DNA from: Phaeacidiphilus oryzae TH49
GTDB taxonomy: Bacteria; Actinomycetota; Actinomycetes; Streptomycetales; Streptomycetaceae
Assembly (NCBI RefSeq): GCF_000744815.1
Contig: NZ_JQMQ01000005.1
Span: 4,729,801 to 4,793,800, forward strand
Direction: 5' to 3'
Length of the DNA stretch: 64,000 bases
Positions 6,736-35,230 of the stretch are shown here, piece after piece; position 1 is the stretch's first letter; each line of letters begins with the position of its first letter. The notes beneath the pieces were generated by a model. That model saw only the letters and a program-made list of their open reading frames with translations, searched no databases and was not told the DNA's origin. The translations under genes were made by a program, and so were the position numbers.

Positions 6736-9423
6736 GTGTCCCAGCAGTACGACACCGCCGCCGGCCGGCCGGCCTCCGGGCCGCCGGGACGGGGCAGGCT
6801 CAAGGTCTTCCTGGGCGCGGCGCCCGGGGTCGGCAAGACGTACCGGATGCTGGACGAGGCGCACCGGCGCCTGGAGCGCGGCACCGACGTGGTGGTGGCG
6901 TACGCCGAGTGCCATCACCGCCGCCGCACCGAGGACCGGCTGCACGGCCTGGAGGTGGTCCCGCGGCTGCACCGCGACTACCGCGGGTCCGCGTTCACCG
7001 AGCTCGACGTGGACGCGGTGCTGGCCCGCCGCCCCGAGGTCGCGCTGGTCGACGAGCTCCCGCACACCAACGTCCCCGGCGGGCGGAACGCCAAGCGCTG
7101 GGAGGACGTCGAGGAGCTGCTGGCCGCCGGCATCGACGTGCTGACCACCGTCAACGTCCAGCACCTCGAGTCGCTGAACGACGTGGTGGAGAAGATCACC
7201 GGCGTTCCGCAGCGGGAGACCATCCCGGACGAGGTGGTCCGCCGGGCGGACCAGATCGAGCTGGTCGACATGGCCCCCGAGGGCCTGCGCCGGCGGATGG
7301 CGCACGGCAACGTCTACGCCGCGGAGAAGGTGGACGCCGCGCTCTCCAACTACTTCCGGGTCGGCAACCTCACCGCGCTGCGCGAACTGGCGCTGCTCTG
7401 GCTGGCCGGACGGGTCGACGAGGGGCTCCAGCGGTACAAGGCGGAGCACCGGATCGGCAAGGTCTGGGAGACCAGGGAGCGGGTCGTGGTCGCCCTCACC
7501 GGTGGGCCGGAGGGCGGGACGCTGATCCGCCGCGCCGCCCGGATCGCCGACCGGGCCGGCGGCGGCGAGCTGCTGGCCGTGCACGTGGCGCGGAGCGACG
7601 GGCTCGCGGACGCCTCGCCGGCGGCGCTGGCCGAGCAGCGGCGACTGGTGGAGAGCCTGGGCGGGACGTACCACTCGGTGGTGGGCGACGACATCCCCGT
7701 CGCGCTCCTCGACTTCGCGCGCGGGGAGAACGCCACCCAGCTGGTGCTGGGCACCAGCCGGCGCGGGCGGGTGCTGCGCTCGCTCACCGGGCGGGGGATC
7801 GGCGAGACCACCACGGAGCTCTCCGGGGACATCGACGTCCACATGGTCACCCACGAGCGGTCCGGGCGGGGCCGACGGCTGCCGGTGCCGGACCGGCTGC
7901 ACTCGCCCGCGCGCCGGGCGGCCGGGGCGGCGGCGGGGCTGCTGACGCCGGTCGTGCTGACGGTGGCCCTCACCCAGACCCGGGCGCCGGTCAACCCGCT
8001 GAGCGACGCGCTGATCTTCCTCCTCGGCGTGGTGGCGGTGGCCACCCTGGGCGGCGTCACCTCCGCCCTGCTGGCCTCGGTCGTCGCCTCGACGCTGCTC
8101 AACTTCTACTTCATCCCGCCGATCCACTCGCTGACCATCGGCTCGCCCAACAACATCATCGCGCTGGGGGTGTTCGCGGTGGTCGGCGTGGTCGTGGCGC
8201 TGATCGTCGACCGGGCGACCCGGCTCTCCCGCCGGGCGGCCAGGGCGACCGCCGAGGCCGAGACCCTCTCCGCCCTCACCGGCTCGGTCCTCGGCGGCGA
8301 CCAGGCCGTCCCCGCCCTGCTGGCCCGCCTCCGCGAGACCTTCGGCATGCAGTCGGTGGAACTCCGGCACCGCGACGGCCCCGCCGCCATCGGTCCCGCC
8401 GCTGGTCCCGCCGCCATCGGTCCCGCCCCCGAGCCGCTGCCGCCGCCCCCCTCCGGCGCGCCCGCTGCGGAGTCCGGGGCGGAGGCCGTCGAGGAGGTGC
8501 AGATCGGGGGAGGGGAGACGCTGATCCTCCGGGGGCGGCCGCTGCCGGCCGCGGATCGGCGGGTGCTGGCGGCCTTCGCCGCGCATGTCGCCGCCGCGCT
8601 GGAGCGCGACCGGCTGGCCACCGTCGCCGCCGAGGTGGAGCCGGTGCGCGCCGCGGACCGGCTGCGTACCGCGCTGCTCGCGGCGGTCAGCCACGATCTC
8701 CGCACCCCGCTGGCGGTGGCTCTCGCCTCGGTCTCCTCGCTCCGCTCCGAGGACGTCGAGTTCTCCACCGAGGACCAGGACGAGCTGCTCTCCACCGCCC
8801 AGCTCTCGCTGGAGAAGCTGACCAGACTGGTGGAGAACCTGCTGGACATGAGCCGGCTGCAGGCCGGCGCGCTCACCCTGCACCTCCAGCCGGTCGGTGT
8901 GGACGAGGTCCTCGCCGCCGCCCGCGACTCGCTCACCGGCGGTCCGGAGAGCGCCGCGGGCCCGGTGCTGGCCCAGGGCCTGGCCGAGGCCCCGGAGGTG
9001 CTGGCGGACCCGCCGCTGCTGGAACGGGTGCTGGCCAACCTGTGCGCCAACGGCCTCCGCCACACTCCGGCCGGGGTGCCGGTGGTGGTCACCGCCAGCA
9101 CCCTCGGCGACCGGGTCGAGCTGCGGGTGATCGACCGCGGCCCGGGCCTGCCCGAGGCCGACCGGGACCGGGTCTTCCAGCCCTTCCAGCGCCTCGGCGA
9201 CACCGACAACGGCAGCGGCGTGGGCCTCGGCCTCGCCCTCTCCCGCGGGCTCGCGGAGGCGATGGGCGGCAGCCTCGAACCGGAGGACACCCCCGGTGGC
9301 GGCCTCACCATGGTCCTCTCGCTGCCCGCCGCGCCGGTCGGCGGCACCGGTGCGGCCGACGACGGCACGTCCGGCCGCGCCGCCGGCTCCGGCGCCGGCG
9401 CGGAAGTCGGGACCGGCCGATGA
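6736..9423 (+). CDS. kdpD: Osmosensitive K+ channel sensor histidine kinase KdpD
   Basis: N-terminal KdpD domain with Walker A (LKVFLGAAPGVGKTYRML), a Usp-like region, four transmembrane segments, GAF-like linker, HisKA H-box (AVSHDLRTPL) and HATPase_c (GVGLGLALSRGLAEAMGG). Strong RBS precedes the GTG. Confidence 0.9.
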   Translation: MSQQYDTAAGRPASGPPGRGRLKVFLGAAPGVGKTYRMLDEAHRRLERGTDVVVAYAECHHRRRTEDRLHGLEVVPRLHRDYRGSAFTELDVDAVLARRPEVALVDELPHTNVPGGRNAKRWEDVEELLAAGIDVLTTVNVQHLESLNDVVEKITGVPQRETIPDEVVRRADQIELVDMAPEGLRRRMAHGNVYAAEKVDAALSNYFRVGNLTALRELALLWLAGRVDEGLQRYKAEHRIGKVWETRERVVVALTGGPEGGTLIRRAARIADRAGGGELLAVHVARSDGLADASPAALAEQRRLVESLGGTYHSVVGDDIPVALLDFARGENATQLVLGTSRRGRVLRSLTGRGIGETTTELSGDIDVHMVTHERSGRGRRLPVPDRLHSPARRAAGAAAGLLTPVVLTVALTQTRAPVNPLSDALIFLLGVVAVATLGGVTSALLASVVASTLLNFYFIPPIHSLTIGSPNNIIALGVFAVVGVVVALIVDRATRLSRRAARATAEAETLSALTGSVLGGDQAVPALLARLRETFGMQSVELRHRDGPAAIGPAAGPAAIGPAPEPLPPPPSGAPAAESGAEAVEEVQIGGGETLILRGRPLPAADRRVLAAFAAHVAAALERDRLATVAAEVEPVRAADRLRTALLAAVSHDLRTPLAVALASVSSLRSEDVEFSTEDQDELLSTAQLSLEKLTRLVENLLDMSRLQAGALTLHLQPVGVDEVLAAARDSLTGGPESAAGPVLAQGLAEAPEVLADPPLLERVLANLCANGLRHTPAGVPVVVTASTLGDRVELRVIDRGPGLPEADRDRVFQPFQRLGDTDNGSGVGLGLALSRGLAEAMGGSLEPEDTPGGGLTMVLSLPAAPVGGTGAADDGTSGRAAGSGAGAEVGTGR

Positions 9424-17299: not shown

Positions 17300-17479
17300 C
17301 GTTCTTCTCTATCACGGGCTACCTCTGCCGACGTACCGCGGCCGGGTTCGCCGGGGATTGTCAGACCCCTCCGCCAGAATGCGGACAGGAGCCGATTCTG
17401 ACGGGCCATCAGAGCGTGATCCCCCAGCGTGATCCCCCAGCGTGATCCCACAGCACGACCGATCCGAGGAGTTGAAGTC

Positions 17480-24889: not shown

Positions 24890-25462
24890 GTGACCGTGAG
24901 CACCGAACTCCAGAACAAGACCATCGCCTTCCTCGTCGCGCCCGAAGGAGTGGAGCAGGTCGAACTGACCGATCCCTGGCAGGCCGTCCACGACGCGGGC
25001 GGGACGCCGCGCCTCCTCTCCACGGGCGCCGAACGCGTCCAGGCCTTCAACCATCTGGACAAGGCGGACACCTTCCCGGTCCACCAGCAGGTCGCGGACG
25101 CCGACCCGGCCGACTACGACGCGCTGGTCCTGCCCGGCGGCGTGGCCAACCCCGACTTCCTGCGGACCGACTCCGACGCGGTGGCCTTCACCAAGGCCTT
25201 CTTCGACGCCCGCAAGCCGGTCGCGGCGATCTGCCACGGCCCGTGGACCCTGGTCGAGGCCGGCGTGGTCCGCGACCGCACGCTGACCTCCTGGCCGAGC
25301 CTGCGCACCGACATCGAGAACGCCAGCGGCCACTGGGTCGACGAGGAGGTCTTCGTCTGCCCCGGCGGGCCCAACGTGCTGATCACCAGCCGCAAGCCGG
25401 ACGACCTGCCGGCCTTCGACAAGGCCCTGATCACCGAGTTCGCCAAGGGCCCGAAGGGCTGA
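24890..25462 (+). CDS. DJ-1/PfpI family protein (type-1 glutamine amidotransferase-like)
   Basis: IAFLVAPEGVEQVEL, nucleophile-elbow Cys (AAICHGPW) and VVRDRTLTSWPS are DJ-1/PfpI signatures. Confidence 0.85.
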   Translation: MTVSTELQNKTIAFLVAPEGVEQVELTDPWQAVHDAGGTPRLLSTGAERVQAFNHLDKADTFPVHQQVADADPADYDALVLPGGVANPDFLRTDSDAVAFTKAFFDARKPVAAICHGPWTLVEAGVVRDRTLTSWPSLRTDIENASGHWVDEEVFVCPGGPNVLITSRKPDDLPAFDKALITEFAKGPKG

Positions 25463-25540
25463 CCGGGCGGCCCGCCTGACCGGGCGCCCCTCCTGACCGG
25501 GCGCGCCCCCTCCTCACCGGCCTCCCCTCCCCGCCGCGGA

Positions 25541-28500
25541 TCAGCGCGGGTGCCGTGGGGCGTGCGACTCGCGCTCCGCGGTACGGAGGATGGCGGATTC
25601 GATGGCCGCGGCCCGGTCGGCCAGGAGGGAGAGGGCGGCCGCCGCGCGATGGGCGGGATCGGCCTCCGGGCCGCCGCCCGCGCCGGTGAGCGCGCGGGCC
25701 CGGACGTGGGCGGCCCGGATCTCCTTGAGACGGACGCCCTCCTCCGGGGTCAGGGCGCCGCGCAGTTCGGCCAGGCGCAGGAGGTTGAACTCCGCGCCGG
25801 TGGCGAGAGTCTGGGCGGCGGCCGTGTAGTGGTCGTCGACGACCGCCGCGGCCTCGGCCGGGTTCATGGCGGGGTCCAGGCGGGCGGCGACGGCGTTCAT
25901 GTCCCGATAGGAGCCCTGGAGGAGGAACGGCGGCTCCGTGCGGGTCTCCGGCGACTGCGCGGCCGAGGCGATGTAGGCGGCGTTGACCGCCAGCACCGTG
26001 TCCCGGGCTGCCAGCAGATGGCGCAGGACGCTCTCGATCCGGGCCAGGTCGGCGGGCGGGCAGGCGGCCCGGAGGGGCTCCCGGCGGGCGGCGGGATCGC
26101 CGGCGGCGAGGCGGAGGAGAGTGGTCAGGTCCGACCGGTCGAAGGCGGCCGCGGGAGCCAGGACCGGGTTGGCGGCCAGGGCGTTCTCGATGAAGCTGAG
26201 CGAGAAGGCGTCCTCGCGGCCGGAGAGGACCTCGCCCAGGTTCCAGACGTCGGCGCGGCTGGCCAGCATGTCGGGGATGCGGAAGCGGCCGCCGGACTCG
26301 GTGTACGGGTTGGCGGTCATCCACACCGCGAAGCGCTTGCCGCGCAGGTCGTAGCGGCGGGCCGCGCCGTTCCACACCCCCTCGACGCCGCGCTGCGCGT
26401 CGCACAGCGGGATGAAGCGCTGCAGCAGCTCGGGGGAGGCGTGCTGGACGTCGTCGAGGTGCAGAAGCACGTTGCCGCCCGCGGCCAGCGCGAAGTTGAC
26501 CTTCTCGATCTCGCGGCGAGCGGCCGCGTCCGGGGCCCGGGCCGGATCGAGGGAGGTCGTGCCCTCGCCGAGGGCCGGCCCGTCCACCCGGACCAGCAGC
26601 AGGCCGAGGCGGTCGGCGACGTAGTCGATCAGGCTGGTCTTGCCGTAGCCGGGCGGCGACACGAGGAGGAGCAGGCCCTGCTGGGCGACGCGCGGGCCCT
26701 CGGCCGTACCGAGCTGGCGGGCCAGGCTGTCCCCGACGAGGGGCAGGTACACCTCCTCGATCAGGCGGTTGCGGACGAAGCCGGCACTGACCCGCGGACG
26801 GTGCTCGTCCAGGCGCAGCTGGGCTCGGGCGGCGGCGACCAGGTCGGCACGGCGGTGCTGGTAGGCGCGGAAGGCCGGGACCTCGACGGCCTCGAACCTG
26901 GCCGTGCGGTCGAGGAGTTCGTCCAGGCGGACCTCCAGCCGGCCGTGGTCGATGCGCGGGTGGCTGCCGCGGAGGCCCTCCACCGTGTGGGAGAGCGGGG
27001 CCTCGACCAGGCGACGGGGGAGTCCGGGGGTGAGCTCGGCGGCGACGGCTTCGGCGATCGAGGCCGGGACGGCGTCGAGAGCCGAGTCGGCCTCGGTGGA
27101 GGCGGCGCTCGCGTCGGCGTAGGCGCTGAGCCAGGTCTCGACGAGCTGGCGGCGGGCGGGGAGGTCGTCGGCGAGGGAGGAGAGGGCGTCCGGGTAGGAG
27201 GCCCGCGCGTCCTCGCTCATGGCGCGGTGGAAGCCGTCCAGGAAGGTGCGGGCGCCGGCGCTGAGGGCGAAGTCGTCGGGGGTCTCGGTCAGCTCCTCGA
27301 AGAGGTACTCGGCGGCGGCGGGCGAGGAGCCGTCCCCCGGCGTGAACTCCTCGATGGCGCGGGCGAGTTCGGCGCACCAGGCGGCGATCCCGGCGGCACC
27401 GCCCGGCGTCGGGCCGAAGTCGGCGCGGGCCCGGGACAGGGAGGCGGCGCGCAGGGCCCAGACGGCGCGCGACTCGGGGGTCGCGCCGTGCGCCCAGAAG
27501 AGCTGGGCGGAGGCCCGCGCCCGCGCGGGGAAGCGCAGCACGCCCGCCCCGGCGCGGAGCCGCAGGAGGGCGGCGAGGATGAGCGCGGCGTCGTGGTCGT
27601 GCACACCCTGCTCGTAGCCCTCGTCGTAGGCGGATCGGGCGGCGGCGGAGGCGAGTTCGGTGAGTTCGACGAGGTCGTCCGGATCGGAGCCGAGGGCGTT
27701 GGAGCCGAGCGCGTCCGGGCCGTTGTCGCGTAGCAGGCGGGCGGCCAGGTACTCGGCACGGTAGACGGCCGGTGACTCCGAGGGGAGCGTGCGGCCCCAG
27801 CAGTCGCAGGTGCTGAGGAAGTCCGGGTCGGTGACGGGCTCGCGGTAGTCGGTGCCGGTGACGGCGAGGTCCAGGCCTCCGTCGGCGCCCGGGACCAGGG
27901 CGAGGTCGAACGGCTGGGTGGTGACGGTGAAGCGGCGCCGGCCCAGGCGGACCACGCGGCCGCCCTCCGTGTACAGATCGGCGCGGTCGCGCAGGGCACG
28001 GGCGGCCGCCTGCCCGGCCTCGGCCAGCCGGCCTTCCAACTCCTCGGCGCGCAGCGGCTCGTCGAGCCCGCGCAGGTCGGCCGCCGCCCTGCGGATCCGG
28101 GCCACCACCGGGTCGGTGGCGAAGTAGGCGGCGGCCGCGGTGGCGTCCGGCAGCGCGGAGACCCGGAGGCCGACCGTCCGCAGCGCCTGCTCGGCGGCGC
28201 GGAGCAGCCGCTCGGCCCGGCGGGCGCGCTCGTCCAGCAGGTTCTGGCGGCGGGCCGCGAAGGCGTCGGTGATCTCCGCGCGCAGTTCCGCGGTACGGGC
28301 CAGGGCCTCCTCGGAGGCGCCGAAGCGGGACTCCAGGTCCTCCAGCCGGAAGAGCAGGCGTGCCGACTGCTCCTCGCACGCGGCGGGGGTCCCCGCGGAG
28401 GCGAGGGCGGTCGCGGTGGTCTGGCGCAGCAGGGCGAGTTCGGCCGCGGACTCGGCCCGGCTCTCGTCCTCGCCGAGCTCGGCCAGGCGCGCAGCGAGCG

Positions 28501-30676
28501 CCGCCCGGGCGGCGTTGGCGGAGGCGAGCACCCGGCCTACGCGCTCCAGGATGCCGGTGCGGACGGCGGCGTCGCCGATGTCCAGCTCGGTGACGACGTC
28601 GGTGACGGTGCGCAGTCCGCGCTGCAGCTCGTCCAGGCGGGCGGAGAGCGGCGCGGAGTCGGCCGTCCGGTCCAGGGCCCCGGCCCGGGCGGTGAGCGCG
28701 GACAGGTCGGCGAGGAGGCCGTCGAAGGCGTCGGGACGGGCCAGGTGCTCGACGGCCCGCCGGGCGAAGGAGGCGATGTCCGACTCCAGGCCGGCGGCCA
28801 GGGCGAGTGCCGACTCGCGTTCCACGTACGGGAGTTCGGCCAGGGGGAGGACGGCGGCGTGCGCGGTGCGCAGGGCTGTCAGGCGCTCCACCCATTCGGC
28901 GGCGGTGGCCGGGGCCTCGCCGCGGGCGCGCCGGACCAACGCGGTGACCTCCCGCTCGGCCTCGGCGAGCGCGTCGGCGGCACGGCGGGTGAGGTCGTCC
29001 ACGCGGTCGAACTCGGCGAGGGTCTGCGCGGCGGTGGCCCGCAGCGCCTCCAGGATCGTCAGGACGTCCCGGAGCGGGCTCCCCGTGGCCTGGGCCTCTT
29101 CGGCCTCTTCGGCTGCTTCGGTCTCTTCGGCCTCCGCAAGCCATGGGTGGGCGCTGACGGCGTGGGTGCAGGCGGCGGCCAGCCGCCGGTAGCCCTCGGC
29201 GGTGTGCTCGGGCTCGGTGGCCGAGCGGGCGATCGCGAAGAGCGTGGAGACCCCGCGCACCAGATCGGCGTTGCCGATCCGGGCCAGCGCCGGGTCGGGG
29301 GCGTCGGTGGTACGGGAGTGGGCGTCGGCCCACGTGTCCGACGCGTAGGGCGAGTTCCAGAACTGGACGGTGTGGACGCGGGCGGGCTCGCCGGCGGCGT
29401 CCGCCCGCAGCAGGGCGAGGGTGCCGTCGTCGAGCAGCGTGTAGTCCCGGCAGAGCAGCGGGGCCGCGAACTCCTGGCGCACCAGGTTGTAGGAGAGCAG
29501 CAGGGCGTGGCCGGTGGCCCGGCAGCGGAAGGCGTAGAGGACGTCCTCGCCGCCGGGCGCGCGGTGCTCGCGTTCGAATTCCGGCTCGCGGATCACTGCG
29601 GGGTCCGGTTCGAAGGCGCCGTGCCGGCCGCCGGCCAGGCAGTAGCCGCCGGGGAAGACGACGCCCTGCTGGTCGGGCAGCGAGCGGCAGGCCCGGCCGA
29701 TGCCGTCCAGGCGGACGACGGCCCGGGTGGTGGTGTCGAAGACCAGATGGCGGGCGACCGGCTCCCGGTAGGGGCGGACGCGCAGCAGGATCAGCGCGCC
29801 CACGCGGGCGTGCGCGACCTCGGCGTCGTCCAGGGACTGCAGCGGCTCGTCGACCGGCTCGCTGTACACGCCGTCGCCGGTGGCGGTGTCGTCCTCGGTC
29901 TTGACGGTGAGGGTGCCGCCGAGGGTGTCGACGAACAGCTCGCCGCGGACGGCGATGTGCGGGTGCCGGCCGGCCCGCTGGTCCTCCCGGACCGCCTCGG
30001 TCCAGTCGAAGTCGTACGCGGGGGCGGGGGAGAGCTCGCGGTCGCCGTGGGCGTCCAGGAACTCGGCGGAGTCGTCCTTGACGGCCCAGCGCAGCCCGCG
30101 GACGTCGGTGGCGCGCTCGCCCGTACGGAAGAGGGCGAGGACGCCGTCCTCGCCGCCGCGCAGGCGGACCAGCCGGGCGTCGCGGAAGTAGCGGTGCAGC
30201 TCGTCGAAGGCCTGCCGGAAGCCCGGCGCGTCCAGCAGGCCGGGCACGGCGTCGGCGGGCAGCGGGGCCAACTCGCGATCGTGGAGGGCGAGTACGTCGG
30301 CCGGGCGGACGCCGGCGCCGTCGCCCGGGCCGGAGACGGGGCTGGAGCCGGGGACGGGGACGGGGCTGGAGCCGGGCACGGGGGCGAAGCCCAGCAGCAG
30401 CCGGTCGCCCACCCTGGCGATCCCGCTGGGGAGGGCGGCACGCTCGGTACGGACGCGGGCGGTACGGGCCGGCGCGAGACGCGCGGAGCCGAAGGCGGCT
30501 GTCCGGCGCGTGTTCAACTCCTCGGTGAGCGAGCCGAGTTCGGCCGCCTGCGCGGCGAGTCTGCGGCGCAGGACGGCGTAGGCTCCGGCATCCGGCCCGG
30601 AGTGCGGACCGGCTCCGATGGCCGCCCCCGCGGTCGCGTCCGCCCGCGGCTCCCTCTCCTCACCTGCTGCGTTCAC
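25541..30676 (-). CDS. Giant (1711 aa) MoxR-like AAA+ ATPase with a long N-terminal region and coiled-coil segments; last gene of the NfeD-flotillin operon
   Basis: Single uninterrupted frame. C-terminal AAA domain has Walker A LLLLVSPPGYGKTSL, Walker B VLLHLDDVQ and a MoxR-like sensor region (FAVWMTANPYTESGGRFRIPDMLASRADVWNLG). Long Ala/Glu/Arg-rich coiled-coil stretches upstream. GTG start at 30676 overlaps an upstream in-frame TGA (GTGA). Confidence 0.8.
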   Translation of the reverse strand: MNAAGEEREPRADATAGAAIGAGPHSGPDAGAYAVLRRRLAAQAAELGSLTEELNTRRTAAFGSARLAPARTARVRTERAALPSGIARVGDRLLLGFAPVPGSSPVPVPGSSPVSGPGDGAGVRPADVLALHDRELAPLPADAVPGLLDAPGFRQAFDELHRYFRDARLVRLRGGEDGVLALFRTGERATDVRGLRWAVKDDSAEFLDAHGDRELSPAPAYDFDWTEAVREDQRAGRHPHIAVRGELFVDTLGGTLTVKTEDDTATGDGVYSEPVDEPLQSLDDAEVAHARVGALILLRVRPYREPVARHLVFDTTTRAVVRLDGIGRACRSLPDQQGVVFPGGYCLAGGRHGAFEPDPAVIREPEFEREHRAPGGEDVLYAFRCRATGHALLLSYNLVRQEFAAPLLCRDYTLLDDGTLALLRADAAGEPARVHTVQFWNSPYASDTWADAHSRTTDAPDPALARIGNADLVRGVSTLFAIARSATEPEHTAEGYRRLAAACTHAVSAHPWLAEAEETEAAEEAEEAQATGSPLRDVLTILEALRATAAQTLAEFDRVDDLTRRAADALAEAEREVTALVRRARGEAPATAAEWVERLTALRTAHAAVLPLAELPYVERESALALAAGLESDIASFARRAVEHLARPDAFDGLLADLSALTARAGALDRTADSAPLSARLDELQRGLRTVTDVVTELDIGDAAVRTGILERVGRVLASANAARAALAARLAELGEDESRAESAAELALLRQTTATALASAGTPAACEEQSARLLFRLEDLESRFGASEEALARTAELRAEITDAFAARRQNLLDERARRAERLLRAAEQALRTVGLRVSALPDATAAAAYFATDPVVARIRRAAADLRGLDEPLRAEELEGRLAEAGQAAARALRDRADLYTEGGRVVRLGRRRFTVTTQPFDLALVPGADGGLDLAVTGTDYREPVTDPDFLSTCDCWGRTLPSESPAVYRAEYLAARLLRDNGPDALGSNALGSDPDDLVELTELASAAARSAYDEGYEQGVHDHDAALILAALLRLRAGAGVLRFPARARASAQLFWAHGATPESRAVWALRAASLSRARADFGPTPGGAAGIAAWCAELARAIEEFTPGDGSSPAAAEYLFEELTETPDDFALSAGARTFLDGFHRAMSEDARASYPDALSSLADDLPARRQLVETWLSAYADASAASTEADSALDAVPASIAEAVAAELTPGLPRRLVEAPLSHTVEGLRGSHPRIDHGRLEVRLDELLDRTARFEAVEVPAFRAYQHRRADLVAAARAQLRLDEHRPRVSAGFVRNRLIEEVYLPLVGDSLARQLGTAEGPRVAQQGLLLLVSPPGYGKTSLIDYVADRLGLLLVRVDGPALGEGTTSLDPARAPDAAARREIEKVNFALAAGGNVLLHLDDVQHASPELLQRFIPLCDAQRGVEGVWNGAARRYDLRGKRFAVWMTANPYTESGGRFRIPDMLASRADVWNLGEVLSGREDAFSLSFIENALAANPVLAPAAAFDRSDLTTLLRLAAGDPAARREPLRAACPPADLARIESVLRHLLAARDTVLAVNAAYIASAAQSPETRTEPPFLLQGSYRDMNAVAARLDPAMNPAEAAAVVDDHYTAAAQTLATGAEFNLLRLAELRGALTPEEGVRLKEIRAAHVRARALTGAGGGPEADPAHRAAAALSLLADRAAAIESAILRTAERESHAPRHPR

Positions 30677-30704
30677 GTCCGGCGTCTCTCACTTCCCGGC
30701 TTGT

Positions 30705-30872
30705 ACCGCGTGTGCTGTGTGTACTGCGTCTGCCGCGTGCCTTGCGTGCCTCGCGTGGCCTGCGTGCTCCGCGTGCCTCGCGTGCCCGGCGTGCCTCGTG
30801 TGCCCCGGGGGCCTCGCGTGCCCTGCGTGCCTCGCGTGGCCCGGGGGCCCGCGTGCCCTGTCCGCCCCGCGT
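30705..30872. repeat. About 18-copy tandem 9-bp repeat array (consensus CYCGCGTGC) filling the flotillin to AAA-ATPase intergenic region
   Basis: Direct reading gives ...gccgcgtgc cttgcgtgc ctcgcgtgg cctgcgtgc tccgcgtgc ctcgcgtgc ccggcgtgc ctcgtgtgc cccgggggc ctcgcgtgc cctgcgtgc ctcgcgtgg cccgggggc... Because the unit is 9 bp, all three frames stay open. A 96-aa minus-strand ORF (30673-30963) spans it. Confidence 0.85.
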
Positions 30873-30959
30873 GTGCCGGCGCCCCGGGCCCCCGGCCCGT
30901 CCGGCCCGGTGCCGCGCCTGTCGGGCCCGACCCCTGTGCGGGCCCGACAGGAAGCGCGG

Positions 30960-33041
30960 TCACGCCGAGGCGTCGCCGCCGTTCGCCGCCGCCAGCGGCA
31001 TCTGGGCCAGGCCCAACCGCTCGGCCTGCTCCATCAGACGGCGGACCTGGCCGGCCTGCGCCCCGCCGTCCTTGGCCAGCCGCGTCAGCAGTGCCGACAC
31101 CGTGAGGTCGCGCACGTCCCCGGCGGAGACCGAGCCGACCATCCTGGTCAGGTCCTCCGGGAAGCTCGCGCTGCCGTTCAGCCAGGGGCCGATCAGCGCC
31201 TGCGCCGTCTCGGAGTGCTGGACGAAGCCGTCGACGCCCTTGCCCATGCCGATCGCCGAGACCAGCCGGTCGAAGAAGGCGCTCTCGCCGCCGACGATGT
31301 CGATGTCGGCGTGCTCCAACCCGGTGGCCAGCACGGTGGCCTGGGCCTCCGCGAGCCGGCGCTGCATGTCCAGGCCGGCCAGCCGGACCTCCTTCTCCGC
31401 GGCCAGGCGCAGCCGGTACTCCTCGTGGCCGCGGGAGGCGTCGTCCAGCGCGGCCATCGCCGCAGCCTTCTCGGTGAGCCCCTCGGCCTCGGCCTTCAGC
31501 TTCTCGCCGATCATCGCGGCCTCCGCGGTGGCCAGTGCCGCCGTCCCCTCGGCCTCGGCGAGCGCCTTGAGCCGCGCCCCCTCCGCCTCGGCCCGCAGCC
31601 GCGCGGCCGTCGCCTCGGCCTCGGCCCGGCCGGCCTTCTCCACTACCTCCGCCTCCTTGTCCCGCACCTGCACGGAGGCGAGGCCGCCGGCGGCCTCCTC
31701 GGCCTGCACGGCCTCGGCGAGCCGCAGCTTGGCCTTGGCGTCCAGGTCGGCGGCCTTCAACCGGGCCTCGGCCAGGGTGAGTTGCTCGGCCGCCCGGTGA
31801 GTGGCCGCGGCCTCGGCGGCCTCCGCCGCCTTGATGTCCTTGACCAGCCGCTCCTGGGCCTCCGCCTCGGCGGCGATGATCACGGACTGGCGGGTGCGCT
31901 CGGCCTCCTCGACCACGCGCAGCTTCTTGATGGACTCCTCCTGCTCGGCGACCGTCCGGTCGACCGCGACCCGCTCGCGTACCACGTCCGCCATCTCCCG
32001 GCGCTCGGTCTCGACCTCGCGCTGGGCGGCGATCCGGGACAGCTCGGTGGCACGGTCCCGGGCGATGGCCTCCAACTGGCGGTCCTTCTCGATCCGTTCG
32101 TTCTCCACGGCGATCACCCGCTCGCGGTTCTTCTCCGCGGCGGCGATCTCCCGCGCCTGGTTCTCGCGCTGCACGCCGAGCAGCTCCTCGGTGCGGATGA
32201 ACGCGGTCTGCGCCTCCAGCCGCTGCTCCTCCTGCGTCTTGGCGGTGACCGCCTCCTCGCGGGCCCGCAGCGTCTCCACCTCGCGGCGCTGCTTGATCTC
32301 GGCCTCCGCCTGCCGGCGCTCCAGCTCCAGGATGGTCTCCCGGGCGTCGACGTCCTGGCGGGTGATCTCCTTCTGCTCGGTGCGCTGGTACTCGTTGGTG
32401 CGCACGTGCTCGGTCGTCGTCAGCTCGGTGATCTTGCGGATGCCCTGGGCGTCCAGGATGTTCGACGGGTCGAGCTGCGACATCGAGGTCTGCTCGAGGA
32501 AGTCGATGGCCGCGTCGTCCAGGTGGTAGCCGTTCAGGTCGGTGCCGATGACCTGGATGATGCGGTCCCGGAACTCCTCGCGCTTGGTGTAGAGATCGAC
32601 GAAGTCCAGCTGCTTGCCGACGGTCTTGAGCCCCTCGGAGAACTTCGCCGCGAAGAACTCCTGGATCGCCTTCGGGTCGCTGGCGGTGGCCGTGCCGATG
32701 GACTGCGCGACCTTGACGACGTCCTCGACGGTCTTGTTCACCCGCACGAAGAACGAGATGTGGATGTCCGCGCGGATGTTGTCCCGGCAGATCAGCCCCT
32801 CCCGGCCGGTGCGCCGGATCTCGATGGTCTTCACCGAGATGTCCATGTACTCGGCCTTGTGGACGACGGGCAGCACGATCGCGCCGGTGAAGGTCACGTC
32901 GACCTTCTTGGCCTTGGAGATGATCAGCGCCCGCCCCTGCTCCACCTTGCGGAACAGCCGGCTGAAGAGCACCAGCACCGTGAGCGAGATGAGCAGCACG
33001 ACGGCGACGAGCACACCGATGGCCAGGGATACGGCATCCAT
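30960..33041 (-). CDS. Flotillin family (SPFH/band-7) protein, YqiK/FloT-like, with an extended coiled-coil
   Basis: N-terminal transmembrane anchor, SPFH domain (ALIISKAKKVDVTFTGAIVLPVVHKAEYMDISVKTIEI...) and a long EA-rich coiled-coil (AEAEIKQRREVETLRAREEA...). GAAGGA RBS precedes the ATG at 33041. Confidence 0.9.
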   Translation of the reverse strand: MDAVSLAIGVLVAVVLLISLTVLVLFSRLFRKVEQGRALIISKAKKVDVTFTGAIVLPVVHKAEYMDISVKTIEIRRTGREGLICRDNIRADIHISFFVRVNKTVEDVVKVAQSIGTATASDPKAIQEFFAAKFSEGLKTVGKQLDFVDLYTKREEFRDRIIQVIGTDLNGYHLDDAAIDFLEQTSMSQLDPSNILDAQGIRKITELTTTEHVRTNEYQRTEQKEITRQDVDARETILELERRQAEAEIKQRREVETLRAREEAVTAKTQEEQRLEAQTAFIRTEELLGVQRENQAREIAAAEKNRERVIAVENERIEKDRQLEAIARDRATELSRIAAQREVETERREMADVVRERVAVDRTVAEQEESIKKLRVVEEAERTRQSVIIAAEAEAQERLVKDIKAAEAAEAAATHRAAEQLTLAEARLKAADLDAKAKLRLAEAVQAEEAAGGLASVQVRDKEAEVVEKAGRAEAEATAARLRAEAEGARLKALAEAEGTAALATAEAAMIGEKLKAEAEGLTEKAAAMAALDDASRGHEEYRLRLAAEKEVRLAGLDMQRRLAEAQATVLATGLEHADIDIVGGESAFFDRLVSAIGMGKGVDGFVQHSETAQALIGPWLNGSASFPEDLTRMVGSVSAGDVRDLTVSALLTRLAKDGGAQAGQVRRLMEQAERLGLAQMPLAAANGGDASA

Positions 33042-33070
33042 GACAGAGACAGTCCTTCGAGGATCAACAG

Positions 33071-33095
33071 GTGAGGTGAGGTGAGATGAGGTGCG
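33071..33095. repeat. Hexamer tandem repeat (GGTGAG x4 on plus strand, CTCACC on minus strand) in the flotillin 5' leader
   Basis: Plus strand reads caggtgaggtgaggtgagatgaggtg, located 30-55 nt upstream of the flotillin ATG on the minus strand. Confidence 0.7.
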
Positions 33096-33195: not shown

Positions 33196-33252
33196 CCGCT
33201 ACGTCTGCAGCGCTACGTCTGCGCCGCTACGTCTGCGTCACTACGTCTGCGG
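33196..33252. repeat. Tandem 14-bp repeat x4 (CGCTACGTCTGCGN) between the NfeD-like gene stop and the flotillin start
   Basis: ccgctacgtctgcag cgctacgtctgcgc cgctacgtctgcgt cactacgtctgcgg; each unit has an ACGT core. The last copy overlaps the NfeD-like stop. Confidence 0.8.
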
Positions 33253-33885
33253 CGCGCCCGGCGGCCCGGTTTCGGGTCGCAGTACGGGGTCGAAGGGCGC
33301 GACCCAGAAGAACTCGCCCTGCTCGTCGTAGTCGTAGAGCAGACCGGTGGTCCCCGCGGCCCCCGCGGCCAGCAGCTCGGCGTCCCTCGGCTGGGCGCGG
33401 ACCGGCACCACGGCGCTCGACCCGTCCTCGGCGCCGACCTCGGCCTGGCCGAATTCGGCCGTGACCCGCCCGGTGCGGATCCGGCAGGTGAGTCCGACGA
33501 AGTCGCGCCGGGACGGGGCGGATTGCTCGGGCAGCACCCGGCGCAGCCGCCGGACCAGCGCCAGGGTGGACACCCAGGACAGCAGCAGGGCGGCGAAGAG
33601 CACCGCCGTTTCGAGGACGGTCCGCAGGGGCCCCGCCGCGACCGCGGCGCGGACCAGCAGCGCGCCGGTCAGGCTGGTGAACCAGGCGATCAGGACCAGG
33701 AAGGACACCGGCACGGTGACCGGTACCGAGCCGCCGCCGAGCGTCTCGGGGAGGTGGTGGGCGTGCAGCGCGTCGTGGTCCGCCGCCCCGACCAGGACCA
33801 GCAGCCAGAACACCACCACGACGATCAGGGCTGCGCCGAACAGCACGGCCGGGAAACCGAGCGCGGCACGCAGGAACTCTCCCAC
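33241..33885 (-). CDS. NfeD-like / YqiJ-family (DUF1449) membrane protein; first gene of the flotillin operon
   Basis: N-terminal transmembrane helices (FPAVLFGAALIVVVVFWLLVLVGAA, FLVLIAWFTSLTGALLV) and a C-terminal beta-rich OB-like region, in the position of yqiJ/nfeD upstream of the flotillin. GGAGGGGGAGGG lies 3 nt upstream of the GTG at 33885. ORF is open to 34191. Confidence 0.65.
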   Translation of the reverse strand: MGEFLRAALGFPAVLFGAALIVVVVFWLLVLVGAADHDALHAHHLPETLGGGSVPVTVPVSFLVLIAWFTSLTGALLVRAAVAAGPLRTVLETAVLFAALLLSWVSTLALVRRLRRVLPEQSAPSRRDFVGLTCRIRTGRVTAEFGQAEVGAEDGSSAVVPVRAQPRDAELLAAGAAGTTGLLYDYDEQGEFFWVAPFDPVLRPETGPPGAPQT

Positions 33886-34141
33886 CTGCCCTCCCCCTCC
33901 GAAACCGGCCCTGCGGCCCTCGCTTTCCGGGCGTGGCCTCGTGCCACTCCCCTGCGAGACAGCATCCTGAGGGGAGGGAGGGGCCCACCGCATTGCCCGT
34001 TTCCGGCAATCTTTACCGGCTCCCCATGCCGGTTGCACGACAACCGGACCCACCTGCGATTCTTGATTGGTTCTTGACGACGGGCGCTGAGCCGCCGTTG
34101 ACGGCACCGCGTGACGGTCGGGAGGGGTGGGGTGGGTGTCG

Positions 34142-35230
34142 ATGTCCGATGCCGTGGTCGCCGCGGACTGGAGCGCCGGCGAAGGCGCCACCGGCCCCGA
34201 CGGCTACGCCCGGCTGCTCGCCGAGGTCGCGGCGACCGGCCGCCGCCTCACCCGCGGGGAACTCGACGAGCATCGCGCCCGTGGCGAGGCCGCCGCCGGC
34301 TCCGGTCGCTCGCTCCGTGAACTCGTCGGCCGCTACCTGGCCGCGACCAGGGCCGCCTGGCCGGAGAACGCCCCCTCGGCGGACCCAGTGCTGGCCGCGA
34401 TGGCCATGGCCGTGGACGCCTTCGCCGACGGCTACGAGCGCGCTCAGCGGATCGCCGTCCGCCAGGAGGAGAACGCCCGCCGGGAGTTCATCGACGACCT
34501 GCTGTACGGCCGCGGGGACCTCGGCCGGCTCGCCCAGCGCGCCGAGCGCTTCGGCCTCCGCCTCGCCCACGCGTACGTCGTGGCCGTGGCGGCGGCCGCG
34601 GACCTCGCCGCGTACGACGCCGTGCACCCCGTCACGCGACAGGTGGAACTCGCCCTGCGCGGCCGGTTCGGCACCCGCAGCATCCTCCTCACCACCAAGG
34701 ACGCCCGGCTCGTCTGCATCGCCCCCGCCGATCACACCGACGTGCTCGACCACTTCGCCGCGCTGGTCCGCGGCGCGGACCGCACGGCGCGCGTCGCCGT
34801 CGGCCGCCCGCACCCAGGCGCGGGCGGCGTCGTCCACTCGTACGAGGAGGCGCTCAACGCCCTCGACCTGGCCGACCGCCTCGACCTGCCCAGCCCTCTG
34901 CTGCACGCCGCCGACCTGCTGGTCTACCCCGTGCTGACCCGCGACCGGGACGCCATGGCCGACCTGGTGCGGCACGCCCTCGGCCCGCTGGAGCGGGCCC
35001 GCGGCGGAGCCGGGCCGCTGCTGAGGACGCTCAGCGTCTACTTCGACAGCGGCTGCGTCTCGGCGGAGGCGGCCCGCAGGCTCGCACTCAGCGTCCGCGC
35101 CCTCACCTACCGCCTGGCCCGAGTCCGGGACCTGACCGGCGCCGACCCGGCCGACCCGGCCCACCGCTACACCCTCCAGACCGCCGTCATCGGCGCCCGC
35201 CTACTGGACTGGCCCGCCCGGGCGCTGTGA
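34142..35230 (+). CDS. PucR/CdaR family transcriptional regulator
   Basis: C-terminal PucR-type HTH (RTLSVYFDSGCVSAEAARRLALSVRALTYRLARVRDLTGADPADP). Transcribed divergently from the NfeD-flotillin operon. Start could be GTG 34127, GTG 34136 or ATG 34142. Confidence 0.75.
   Translation: MSDAVVAADWSAGEGATGPDGYARLLAEVAATGRRLTRGELDEHRARGEAAAGSGRSLRELVGRYLAATRAAWPENAPSADPVLAAMAMAVDAFADGYERAQRIAVRQEENARREFIDDLLYGRGDLGRLAQRAERFGLRLAHAYVVAVAAAADLAAYDAVHPVTRQVELALRGRFGTRSILLTTKDARLVCIAPADHTDVLDHFAALVRGADRTARVAVGRPHPGAGGVVHSYEEALNALDLADRLDLPSPLLHAADLLVYPVLTRDRDAMADLVRHALGPLERARGGAGPLLRTLSVYFDSGCVSAEAARRLALSVRALTYRLARVRDLTGADPADPAHRYTLQTAVIGARLLDWPARAL

Follow-up and report, generated by a model that had tools for sequence, protein, structure and literature searches.

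A conserved hairpin and a decayed, probably non-coding tandem repeat between the flotillin and DUF3686 ATPase genes of Phaeacidiphilus oryzae

The flotillin gene of Phaeacidiphilus oryzae is followed on the same strand by a gene for a DUF3686 ATPase, and the 283-bp spacer between them (79% GC) contains a 9-bp tandem repeat and an open reading frame of 96 codons. The question raised by this junction is whether the frame is translated or the spacer is non-coding. A preliminary description of the locus offered both readings, a translationally coupled small repeat protein or a non-coding tandem repeat, and extended the second to a phase-variation or contingency site. We analyzed the junction within a 64-kb stretch of P. 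oryzae DNA (the window) and at orthologous loci in Streptomyces. The spacer is best explained as non-coding, with a conserved stem-loop at the flotillin mRNA 3′ end and, beyond it, a slippage repeat that is neutral and has decayed, and we place the probability of this reading at about 0.78. The features of the junction are as follows.

30960–33041, minus strand: flotillin-family (SPFH/YqiK-like) gene, a 693-amino acid open reading frame and the upstream partner of the junction.
30912–30959, minus strand: GC-rich conserved RNA hairpin immediately downstream of the flotillin stop, from the fold and a covariance model.
30859–30911, minus strand: GC-rich segment that separates hairpin and array and has no clear repeat, with a weak TRF row only.
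30733–30858, minus strand: degenerate 9-bp tandem repeat with an 18-bp higher order, unit GGCACGCGA on the gene strand, from TRF.
30677–30732, minus strand: decayed end of the repeat (CAGACGCAG, TACACACAG) together with the ATPase leader, read from the sequence.
30673–30963, minus strand: mechanical 96-codon open reading frame spanning the spacer, judged not to be protein-coding.
25541–30676, minus strand: gene for a DUF3686/AAA "DNA repair ATPase", a 1711-amino acid open reading frame and the downstream partner of the junction.

The flanking genes define the ends of the spacer. The flotillin frame stops at a TGA at 30960–30962, and its GC content by codon position (0.73/0.43/0.98) has the coding pattern. 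A protein search found its product to be 100% identical to the NCBI entry "flotillin family protein [Phaeacidiphilus oryzae]", and there was no Pfam or NCBIfam match at E ≤ 0.01. P. oryzae was found once in this search, on a single contig; the genus has one species, and the next relative is 83–84% identical. The ATPase matches Pfam PF12458 (2.1e-143) and PF25472, has an AAA domain at residues 1336–1474 (Pfam), and has a GC content by codon position of 0.80/0.55/0.95. Its homologs carry the name "DNA repair ATPase" in the protein search, which returned partial homologs only and not the P. oryzae entry itself. The GTG at 30674–30676 is predicted to be the ATPase start, since no other canonical start lies in frame ahead of the conserved region. 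Both this GTG and the flotillin stop are at the positions reported in the preliminary description. An in-frame TGA at 30689–30691 closes the ATPase frame four codons before the GTG. An amino-terminal extension of the ATPase and read-through from flotillin were rejected based on this TGA and the finding that no spacer frame has a coding signature. The two genes are syntenic in 77 of 80 Streptomyces loci, and the remaining three loci end before the ATPase gene. PADLOC gave no defense-system match for the flanking genes. Flotillin and the DUF3686 ATPase are an uncharacterized but widely conserved gene pair.

The 96-codon frame is open across the entire spacer with GTGA at both ends, as was originally described. 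Its GTG at 30961–30963 overlaps the flotillin TGA, and its TGA at 30673–30675 overlaps the ATPase GTG to give ACGTGAAC at 30673–30676. Coding frames were recognized by GC3 far exceeding GC2, as in the flanking genes (GC3 of ~0.95 versus GC2 of 0.45–0.55). The 96-codon frame has GC contents of 0.72/0.83/0.80, and the flanking-gene GC1/GC2/GC3 pattern is seen in no spacer frame. The codon log-odds score of the frame is −0.57 per codon, and all six spacer frames are negative, compared to a minimum of +0.20 and a mean of +0.81 for held-out in-frame windows of the flanking genes. The segment at 30859–30911 has no coding signature in any frame by GC pattern or codon log-odds. A search of 5.8 billion protein clusters returned no homolog of the product at E ≤ 0.001 and no self-hit, although the neighboring flotillin is represented at 100% identity, and the product has no exact entry on record. 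At the 77 orthologous junctions where the ATPase start could be identified, neither tblastn nor blastn located a counterpart. The first ~16 codons of the frame coincide with the covarying RNA hairpin. The GC pattern, the codon score, and the lack of homologs or orthologous counterparts give no support to the translated small repeat protein that had been suggested. Almost certainly, the 96-codon frame is not a gene and results from the very high GC content of the DNA.

One form that a product could take is a functional small collagen-like or low-complexity protein of Gly-Thr-Arg repeats, and the translation had been called Gly-X-Y-like. Short Gly-X-Y runs do exist, and there are weak, sub-threshold matches to Pfam Collagen (19.7 bits, cut-off 27.2 bits) and to NCBIfam collagen-like adhesin models (~20 bits, cut-offs 325–500). 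All of these scores are far under the cut-offs, however, and at most seven Gly-X-Y triplets are uninterrupted, the series being broken by STQ and ATR. Neither a signal peptide nor a trimerization domain is evident in the sequence. The composition and codon score are non-coding, nothing similar exists in the protein database or at the orthologous loci, and the amino-terminal codons are those of an RNA stem. The collagen-like protein is close to refuted, and we give it almost no weight.

The frame and its overlaps have a simpler origin. The frame stays open in 62–68% of shuffled spacers, and the original caution that an open frame alone is weak evidence was well placed. In the window, the context NTGA, with a first base that permits a start codon, occurs at 6 of 32 stop codons. 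Weighing against a chance origin is the low prior probability, estimated at ~1% per junction (0.19 × ~0.25 × 1/3 × ~0.65), of finding the two −4 overlaps in a single open frame; here 0.25, the frequency of an A after the start codon, is an estimate and not a measured value. The 96-codon frame and its two GTGA overlaps arise because 79% GC makes stops rare, because the repeat unit is a multiple of three, and because two common junction tetranucleotides happen to share a frame. Translational coupling through the double GTGA was part of the preliminary description, and the orthologs do not bear it out. Two of 77 orthologs have GTGA after the flotillin gene, and bridging open reading frames occur at 1 of 64 orthologous junctions compared to 6.5 expected from shuffles. 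In these sequences, the double GTGA arrangement is not conserved.

The element that is conserved lies directly 3′ of the flotillin stop. The hairpin is 39–48 nt long with its core at 30915–30953, the loop CACAGGGGU, the tail CACCGGGCCG, and a local folding energy of −38.5 kcal/mol. It is not followed by a U-tract, and the 8-nt tail CACCGGGC contains 0 U. A scan of 30300–31300 found no canonical intrinsic terminator consisting of a stem-loop and U-tract. Covariance model R1 matches 30915–30953 on the minus strand at 49.6 bits, its sole match in the window, and at 24 of 80 Streptomyces loci it detects the hairpin in the equivalent place downstream of flotillin. No other position fell below E = 0.05 in the 1.15 Mb searched. 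These counts were taken from the covariance model; a fixed-length hairpin finder missed some stems. In the loop-anchored, ungapped alignment, 96% of the cells are paired, 9 of 14 pairs change on both sides, and there are 20 G·U cells on the sense strand versus 1 A·C cell. The loop CACAGGGG is conserved among species. These data show that the hairpin is a conserved RNA structure. Rfam identified no family in 30400–31200 and gave only two chance-level matches (19–21 bits compared to gathering scores of 46–65). The hairpin is probably the ancestral core of the junction because it fills most of the 60–100-nt gap in compact orthologs. Mapped Streptomyces transcripts with structured ends that lack U provide an analogy, by which the hairpin would most likely mark or protect a 3′ end of the flotillin mRNA.

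The tandem repeat lies downstream of the hairpin. Its unit on the plus strand is CGCGTGCCT, a rotation of the CYCGCGTGC reported earlier. TRF describes the array as 13.9 copies of a 9-bp unit with a 72% match (30734–30857) or as 7.1 copies of an 18-bp unit with a 79% match (30733–30858), and its score of 152 is the highest tandem repeat score in the window. A two-unit probe gave 8 matches compared to 0.67 expected, and none of 100 shuffles reached 8. The matches all lie inside 30733–30840, and the window has no other copy. When read in register, 13 units share at least 6 of 9 bases with the consensus; two of the ~13 are the consensus exactly, and two to four units on the flanks are very degenerate. 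No perfect repeat tract exceeds 17 nt. The 9-bp repeat is therefore real and far above chance, but the 18 copies first counted are reduced to ~13–14 copies by TRF that are 72–79% alike. Contrary to what had been stated, the array does not exactly fill the junction. It covers ~125 bp (at most ~150) of the 283-bp spacer, of which the 48 nt adjoining the flotillin stop form the hairpin. The weak TRF row at 30892–30929 (period 9, score 35, 18% indels) also overlaps a hairpin arm. Short tandem repeats are also found in other intergenic regions of the window, at 33197–33255, 25459–25530, and 17413–17454.

The junctions of the orthologs differ from this one and from each other. The gap ranges from ~60 to 670 nt in 77 Streptomyces species, and about half of the gaps hold tandem repeats of many periods (5–99 bp) or REP-like elements. 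The 9-bp unit and its array are absent from all 77 orthologous Streptomyces junctions examined. Many junctions have a REP-like palindromic element (GCCGGACGGGCT) where the hairpin would sit, and in compact orthologs, a GGAAGGGA-type Shine-Dalgarno sequence belonging to the ATPase gene closely follows the hairpin. Comparison of orthologous junctions, the check proposed for deciding between a conserved small open reading frame and a variable repeat, yielded no small-frame counterpart and a variable spacer with unrelated repeats.

The idea that the array is a contingency or variable-number site was considered, with frequent 9-bp copy-number changes tuning read-through, mRNA stability, or the flotillin–ATPase spacing. 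The array is a tandem repeat in an intercistronic position, and the junction length is hypervariable between species. The rate of slippage depends on repeat purity, however, and this array is impure. A 9-bp unit cannot switch the reading frame. Promoter-like sites or hexamers were not found in 30300–31300, including in or beside the array, in a search for the E. coli-type consensus only that is a weak test. The variation between species consists of unrelated insertions and not the copy number of one unit. These data speak against the phase-variation extension of the preliminary description, and we regard a contingency site as quite improbable.

The array might instead be a cis-regulatory platform that controls ATPase expression through sites for DNA- or RNA-binding proteins or through a Z-DNA-prone GCACGCG tract. 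In its favor, a defined 9-mer is regularly repeated upstream of the ATPase start, and the heptamer GCACGCG, read from the sequence in each unit, alternates purine and pyrimidine. On the other hand, neither the orthologous junctions nor the remainder of the window contain the unit, sites spaced 9 bp apart do not share one helix face, and the units show decay instead of conservation. In metagenomes, a scan for 2.5 units identified 70 contigs that have the identical 9-mer in tandem (3–22 copies) with GC contents of 0.45 to 0.81. These arrays most often read (ARE)n in the longest open frame, and none of the 70 contigs encodes a flotillin or DUF3686 relative. They were rejected as homologs and are unrelated slippage products. 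The occurrence of the 9-mer array in 70 unrelated contigs suggests a generic product of slippage, and the odds of a cis-regulatory platform are remote. The data support the P. oryzae array being a non-coding tandem repeat, which was the second alternative of the preliminary description.

These results are brought together in the following model. The hairpin on the flotillin mRNA strand would mark or protect the 3′ end of the message, and only a fraction of transcription would continue past it into the ATPase gene, placing flotillin above the ATPase in abundance. The spacer beyond the hairpin would be unconstrained, as suggested by the varying gap length and the unrelated repeats in Streptomyces, none with the P. 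oryzae unit. In the P. oryzae lineage, it was probably lengthened by replication-slippage amplification of the 9/18-bp unit. The array would then have decayed by point mutation, consistent with the 72–79% identity and the 17-nt perfect tract. The array most likely has no sequence-specific function and would merely separate the hairpin from the ATPase ribosome-binding region. Its neutrality is judged from one genome, and its rank as the top-scoring tandem repeat of the window counts against this reading. The leader at 30677–30732 holds weak purine-rich Shine-Dalgarno-like stretches, GGGAAG and GAGAGA. The Shine-Dalgarno-like sequence at the ATPase GTG is weak and poorly spaced, which leaves room for some coupling.

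Such coupling is central to another explanation, a MIRU-like relay frame that is translated only to ferry ribosomes across the enlarged spacer. Ribosomes terminating at the flotillin TGA would reinitiate at the GTG that overlaps it, unfold the hairpin, translate the repeat, and reinitiate at the ATPase through the TGA/GTG overlap. The peptide would be irrelevant; therefore, the codon usage and conservation tests would not apply. The −4 overlaps at both junctions of one open frame and the weak Shine-Dalgarno-like sequence at the ATPase start are consistent with a relay, and a review describes MIRUs that insert at start codons and have an internal open reading frame coupled at −4 spacing (PMC12548453). 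Yet 62% of shuffles have the frame open given the spacer length and flanking tetranucleotides, NTGA stop contexts are common (6/32), and the orthologs have neither an enrichment of bridging frames (1/64 versus 6.5 expected) nor, in all but 2 of 77 cases, GTGA after flotillin. The ATPase of compact orthologs has its own Shine-Dalgarno sequence just past the hairpin. Little mRNA would be left for coupling if the hairpin ends most transcripts, and the start of the 96-codon frame has no evident Shine-Dalgarno sequence and runs straight into the −38.5 kcal/mol stem. A relay is unlikely, and it is doubtful that one was kept after repeat expansion pushed the hairpin ~230 nt from the ATPase start. A separate part of this improbable reading is that the CACAGGGG-loop hairpin would be a previously undescribed cis-regulatory RNA motif of the flotillin–DUF3686 operon in Streptomycetaceae. 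If true, the relay would be a MIRU-like solution derived from a 9-bp minisatellite outside the mycobacteria.

With the spacer read as a non-coding hairpin and decayed repeat, the junction matters little as a repeat or small open reading frame, and the hairpin is a modest positive result. It is locus-specific and covarying, is shared by Phaeacidiphilus and roughly one-third of the Streptomyces loci sampled, and matches no Rfam family. The REP-like palindrome at the hairpin site in other Streptomyces suggests that the flotillin:ATPase ratio is set at the RNA level. The locus also illustrates that in very GC-rich genomes, chance produces open frames of considerable length and even pairs of start/stop overlaps, and that frames of this kind can be dismissed with GC3, codon statistics, and a comparison of orthologous junctions.

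Four known systems were compared to the junction. The phase-variable contingency tracts of Neisseria and Haemophilus are pure and act by frame shifting or promoter spacing. The P. oryzae array shares with them a short-unit tandem repeat adjoining a gene start, but it is impure, its unit is a multiple of three, and it lies in no recognizable promoter. MIRU units are 40–100 bp and dispersed at many loci, whereas the P. oryzae unit is 9 bp (18 bp in the higher order) and its array is unique within the window. MIRUs are short repetitive sequences in many mycobacteria (PMC12548453). MIRU-VNTR loci and the P. oryzae junction both have an actinobacterial tandem repeat between co-oriented genes, with an open frame through the repeat that overlaps the downstream start by 4 nt (PMC12548453). 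Unlike MIRUs, the P. oryzae array is degenerate and absent from orthologous junctions, and it gives no evidence of mobility.

Intercistronic REP-type hairpins stabilize upstream operon mRNA, as in malE–malF of E. coli. The P. oryzae hairpin is likewise a stable stem-loop between two operon genes that is expected to favor the upstream product, and the REP-like GCCGGACGGGCT holds this place at many Streptomyces junctions. The CACAGGGG hairpin differs in being found only at the flotillin–ATPase junction in 1.15 Mb and is not a dispersed family. U-less stem-loops with a dG below −23 kcal/mol are a recognized class of Streptomyces 3′ ends with partial read-through in Term-seq (PMC8269248). This HS-U-lack class of TEPs (I-shaped terminator-like stem-loops) has a dG below ~−23 kcal/mol and <3 U among the 8 nt that follow the stem (PMC8269248), and the P. 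oryzae hairpin has −38.5 kcal/mol and 0 U. It is also GC-rich, closely follows a stop codon, and lies within a gene cluster. The class is defined by experimentally mapped 3′ ends, whereas the P. oryzae hairpin is identified from sequence. The hairpin has in addition a locus-specific loop, CACAGGGG, and stems that covary across genera, and generic terminators need neither.

The flotillin and ATPase genes of Phaeacidiphilus oryzae (Streptomycetaceae, 74% GC, one species in the genus) are separated by a 283-bp spacer with these features.

30960-33041, minus strand: flotillin-family ORF, 693 aa, 100% identical to NCBI 'flotillin family protein [Phaeacidiphilus oryzae]'
30960-30962, minus strand: flotillin TGA stop, overlapped by a GTG at 30961-30963
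30673-30675, minus strand: TGA stop of the 96-codon open frame that bridges the spacer (the ORF, 30673-30963), overlapping the ATPase GTG at 30674-30676
25541-30676, minus strand: ATPase ORF downstream of flotillin on the same strand, 1711 aa, with Pfam DUF3686, DUF7902, and AAA domains

The closest other flotillin relatives found by protein search are Streptomyces proteins (83-84% identity), and close relatives are labelled 'YqiK' by JGI and 'flotillin family' by NCBI. The flotillin has no Pfam or NCBIfam match at E ≤ 0.01, which may reflect HMMER bias filters acting on its long Ala/Glu-rich coiled-coil region. The ATPase matches Pfam DUF3686 'ATPase involved in DNA repair' with E = 2e-143, and its homologues are named 'DNA repair ATPase'. 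Neither protein matched PADLOC models.

Rechecking the coordinates in the sequence confirmed the 96-codon frame and the GTGA overlaps at both junctions. The preliminary description also placed 18 copies of a 9-bp repeat in the junction and had them fill it exactly. The repeat (consensus GGCACGCGA) exists. TRF finds 13.9 copies at period 9 (72% matches, 30734-30857) and 7.1 copies at period 18 (79% matches, 30733-30858; score 152, the top in the window), and all eight matches of a two-unit probe (0.67 expected) fall inside the array. The count of 18 does not stand, since the in-register reading gives 13 units with at least 6 of 9 consensus bases, and the array covers about 125 of the 283 bp. 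Only two units are identical to GGCACGCGA, and perfect tandem tracts reach 17 nt at most. Replication slippage of a 9/18-bp unit probably created the array, which then accumulated substitutions; traces of a roughly 36-bp higher-order duplication are readable. Slippage depends on repeat purity, and the low purity of the array argues against present-day hypermutability, which makes contingency behavior very unlikely. A platform for protein binding or Z-DNA formed by the array is highly improbable. In 70 unrelated metagenome contigs (L081-L150; GC 0.45-0.81) the same unit, GGCACGCGA, forms pure tandem arrays with 3-22 copies, where the longest open frame most often reads (ARE)n. These arrays are recurrent independent amplifications of an identical unit.

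GC content at codon positions 1/2/3 is 0.73/0.43/0.98 in flotillin, 0.80/0.55/0.95 in the ATPase, and 0.72/0.83/0.80 in the ORF; the coding pattern is absent from every spacer frame on both strands. A codon log-odds score, for which 28 other confident genes in the window served as training set, gave -0.57 per codon for the ORF and was negative in all six spacer frames. For held-out 96-codon windows of the flanking genes, in-frame scores had a minimum of +0.20 and a mean of +0.81, and out-of-frame scores were at most -0.68. A search of 5.8 billion protein clusters (E ≤ 0.001) gave no match to the ORF, itself included. The adjacent flotillin is present in the protein data, so the missing self-match indicates that no source annotates the ORF. 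Its matches to Pfam Collagen and NCBIfam collagen-like adhesin were far under threshold. The GC pattern, codon score, and cluster search speak against the translated small repeat protein offered earlier as one reading, and a functional collagen-like peptide has next to no probability.

Scanning genomes for the flotillin protein gave 80 Streptomyces loci. The DUF3686 ATPase follows on the same strand in 77, and the other three end before the ATPase. Across the 77, about 60 to 670 nt separate the flotillin stop from the conserved ATPase portion. About half of the 77 junctions hold tandem repeats, with many periods from 5 to 99 bp; none of the 77 contains the GGCACGCGA unit, and comparison with the ORF peptide and with the spacer DNA gave no significant match at these junctions. 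In 2 of the 77 loci the flotillin gene is followed by GTGA. This comparison shows that the repeat, the ORF, and the coupling are all unconserved. The array is lineage-specific and decayed.

The first 48 nt after the flotillin stop form a long GC-rich stem (CCGCGC..CUGUCGGGCCCG-CACAGGGGU-CGGGCCCGACAG-GCGCGG; dG -38.5 kcal/mol). Many orthologues have a hairpin at the same place that keeps the loop (CACAGGGG or YACGGGGG) and differs in stem sequence. Aligning 20 sequences on the loop gave pairing in 96% of cells, and 9 of 14 pairs changed on both sides compared to 1.5 in shuffles; the signal is lost when the partner is slid. The gene strand has 20 G.U cells versus one A.C, which identifies the hairpin as an RNA structure of the flotillin mRNA strand. 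Fifteen of these sequences were used to build a covariance model, and its matches over 1.15 Mb all lie immediately after flotillin; 24 of the 80 loci have one, several of them outside the training set, and no other position scores below E = 0.05. The model's match in the window is as follows.

30915-30953, minus strand: hairpin, covariance-model match of 49.6 bits, once in the window

No Rfam family matches the hairpin. In the shortest-gap species it is most of the spacer, and the ATPase start, which carries a GGAAGGGA-type Shine-Dalgarno sequence, lies within about 25-30 nt after it. These data establish that the flotillin 3' end carries a conserved RNA stem-loop on the sense strand, a by-product of the analysis worth recording, and the spacer outside the stem-loop is unconstrained. 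At many other Streptomyces junctions a REP-like palindrome (GCCGGACGGGCT) takes the hairpin's place; 44 of its 46 copies across the 80 loci fall in this junction. In many junctions a REP-like palindromic element of 28-99 bp (core CCGTCCTCAAACGCCGGACGGGCTGG) occurs in tandem, with 2-6 copies (locus coordinates about 8100-8600 in L006, L010, L015, L022, L032, L049, and others). In L080, an 18-bp repeat (GACGCCCGGCTGAGGCCC, 4.6 copies, 8149-8230), whose unit includes CTGA, as does the flotillin stop context of that locus, lies between the flotillin stop and the hairpin. Expansions thus occur on either side of the hairpin, depending on the species.

The serious rival is a relay ORF, translated merely to carry ribosomes across the spacer to the ATPase start, as proposed for MIRUs, in which an ORF inside an inserted repeat is coupled at -4 to a gene (PMC12548453). 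The peptide of a relay would not matter, so the codon and conservation tests are no argument against it, and the weak ATPase Shine-Dalgarno leaves room for coupling. We nevertheless consider a relay unlikely. Dinucleotide-preserving spacer shuffles leave each frame open in 66-68% of cases, and the bridging ORF survives 62% of shuffles with the flanks held fixed; an open frame is the expected state. NTGA stops with a start-capable N occur in 6 of 32 genes in the window, and the joint prior for the double overlap is roughly 1% per junction, or several cases per genome, using a guessed frequency of A after a start codon. Orthologues lack bridging ORFs in excess (1 of 64 usable junctions versus 6.5 expected from shuffles). 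The hairpin sits at the ORF start and encodes its first ~16 codons, further evidence for selection on RNA structure rather than peptide. Overall, the junction holds an intergenic slippage repeat of a GC-rich actinobacterial operon together with an ORF judged spurious, a known kind of thing.

Short tandem repeats in other intergenic regions of the window mark such arrays as a habit of the genome and not a special device. A 14-bp repeat (GCAGACGTAGCGGC, 4.2 copies, 33197-33255, minus-strand sense) between flotillin and the upstream 316-aa ORF (33241-34191, minus strand; no match in Pfam, NCBIfam, or PADLOC) reiterates the final codons and TAG stop of that ORF, meaning that a stop-containing gene end was tandemly duplicated four times. 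A 17-bp repeat (CTGACCGGGCGGCCCGC, about 3 copies, 25459-25530) between convergent genes ending at 25462 (plus strand) and 25541 (minus strand) starts at the TGA of the plus-strand gene and reiterates it, the second case here of a tandem repeat seeded at the stop-codon end of a gene. The flotillin 5' leader has a short pyrimidine-rich reiteration (CACCTCATCTCACCTCACCTCACCTG, 33062-33092, minus-strand sense); the GAAGGA Shine-Dalgarno-like sequence and the ATG follow about 20 nt further on. Near the N terminus of the ATPase, the coding sequence contains an in-frame 24-bp repeat (2.5 copies, 30323-30383) that encodes PVPGSSPVPVPGSSPVSGPG. The first ~25 ATPase residues are unconserved, and orthologue alignments start at residue 7-29 with one locus excepted.

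In function, the stem-loop probably belongs to a class of transcript 3' ends that Term-seq mapped in Streptomyces clavuligerus and that are described as 'highly structured, U-lacking'. Inside transcription-unit clusters these sites show partial read-through and are proposed to set relative transcript levels (PMC8269248). As a member of this class, the stem-loop would favor flotillin over the ATPase.
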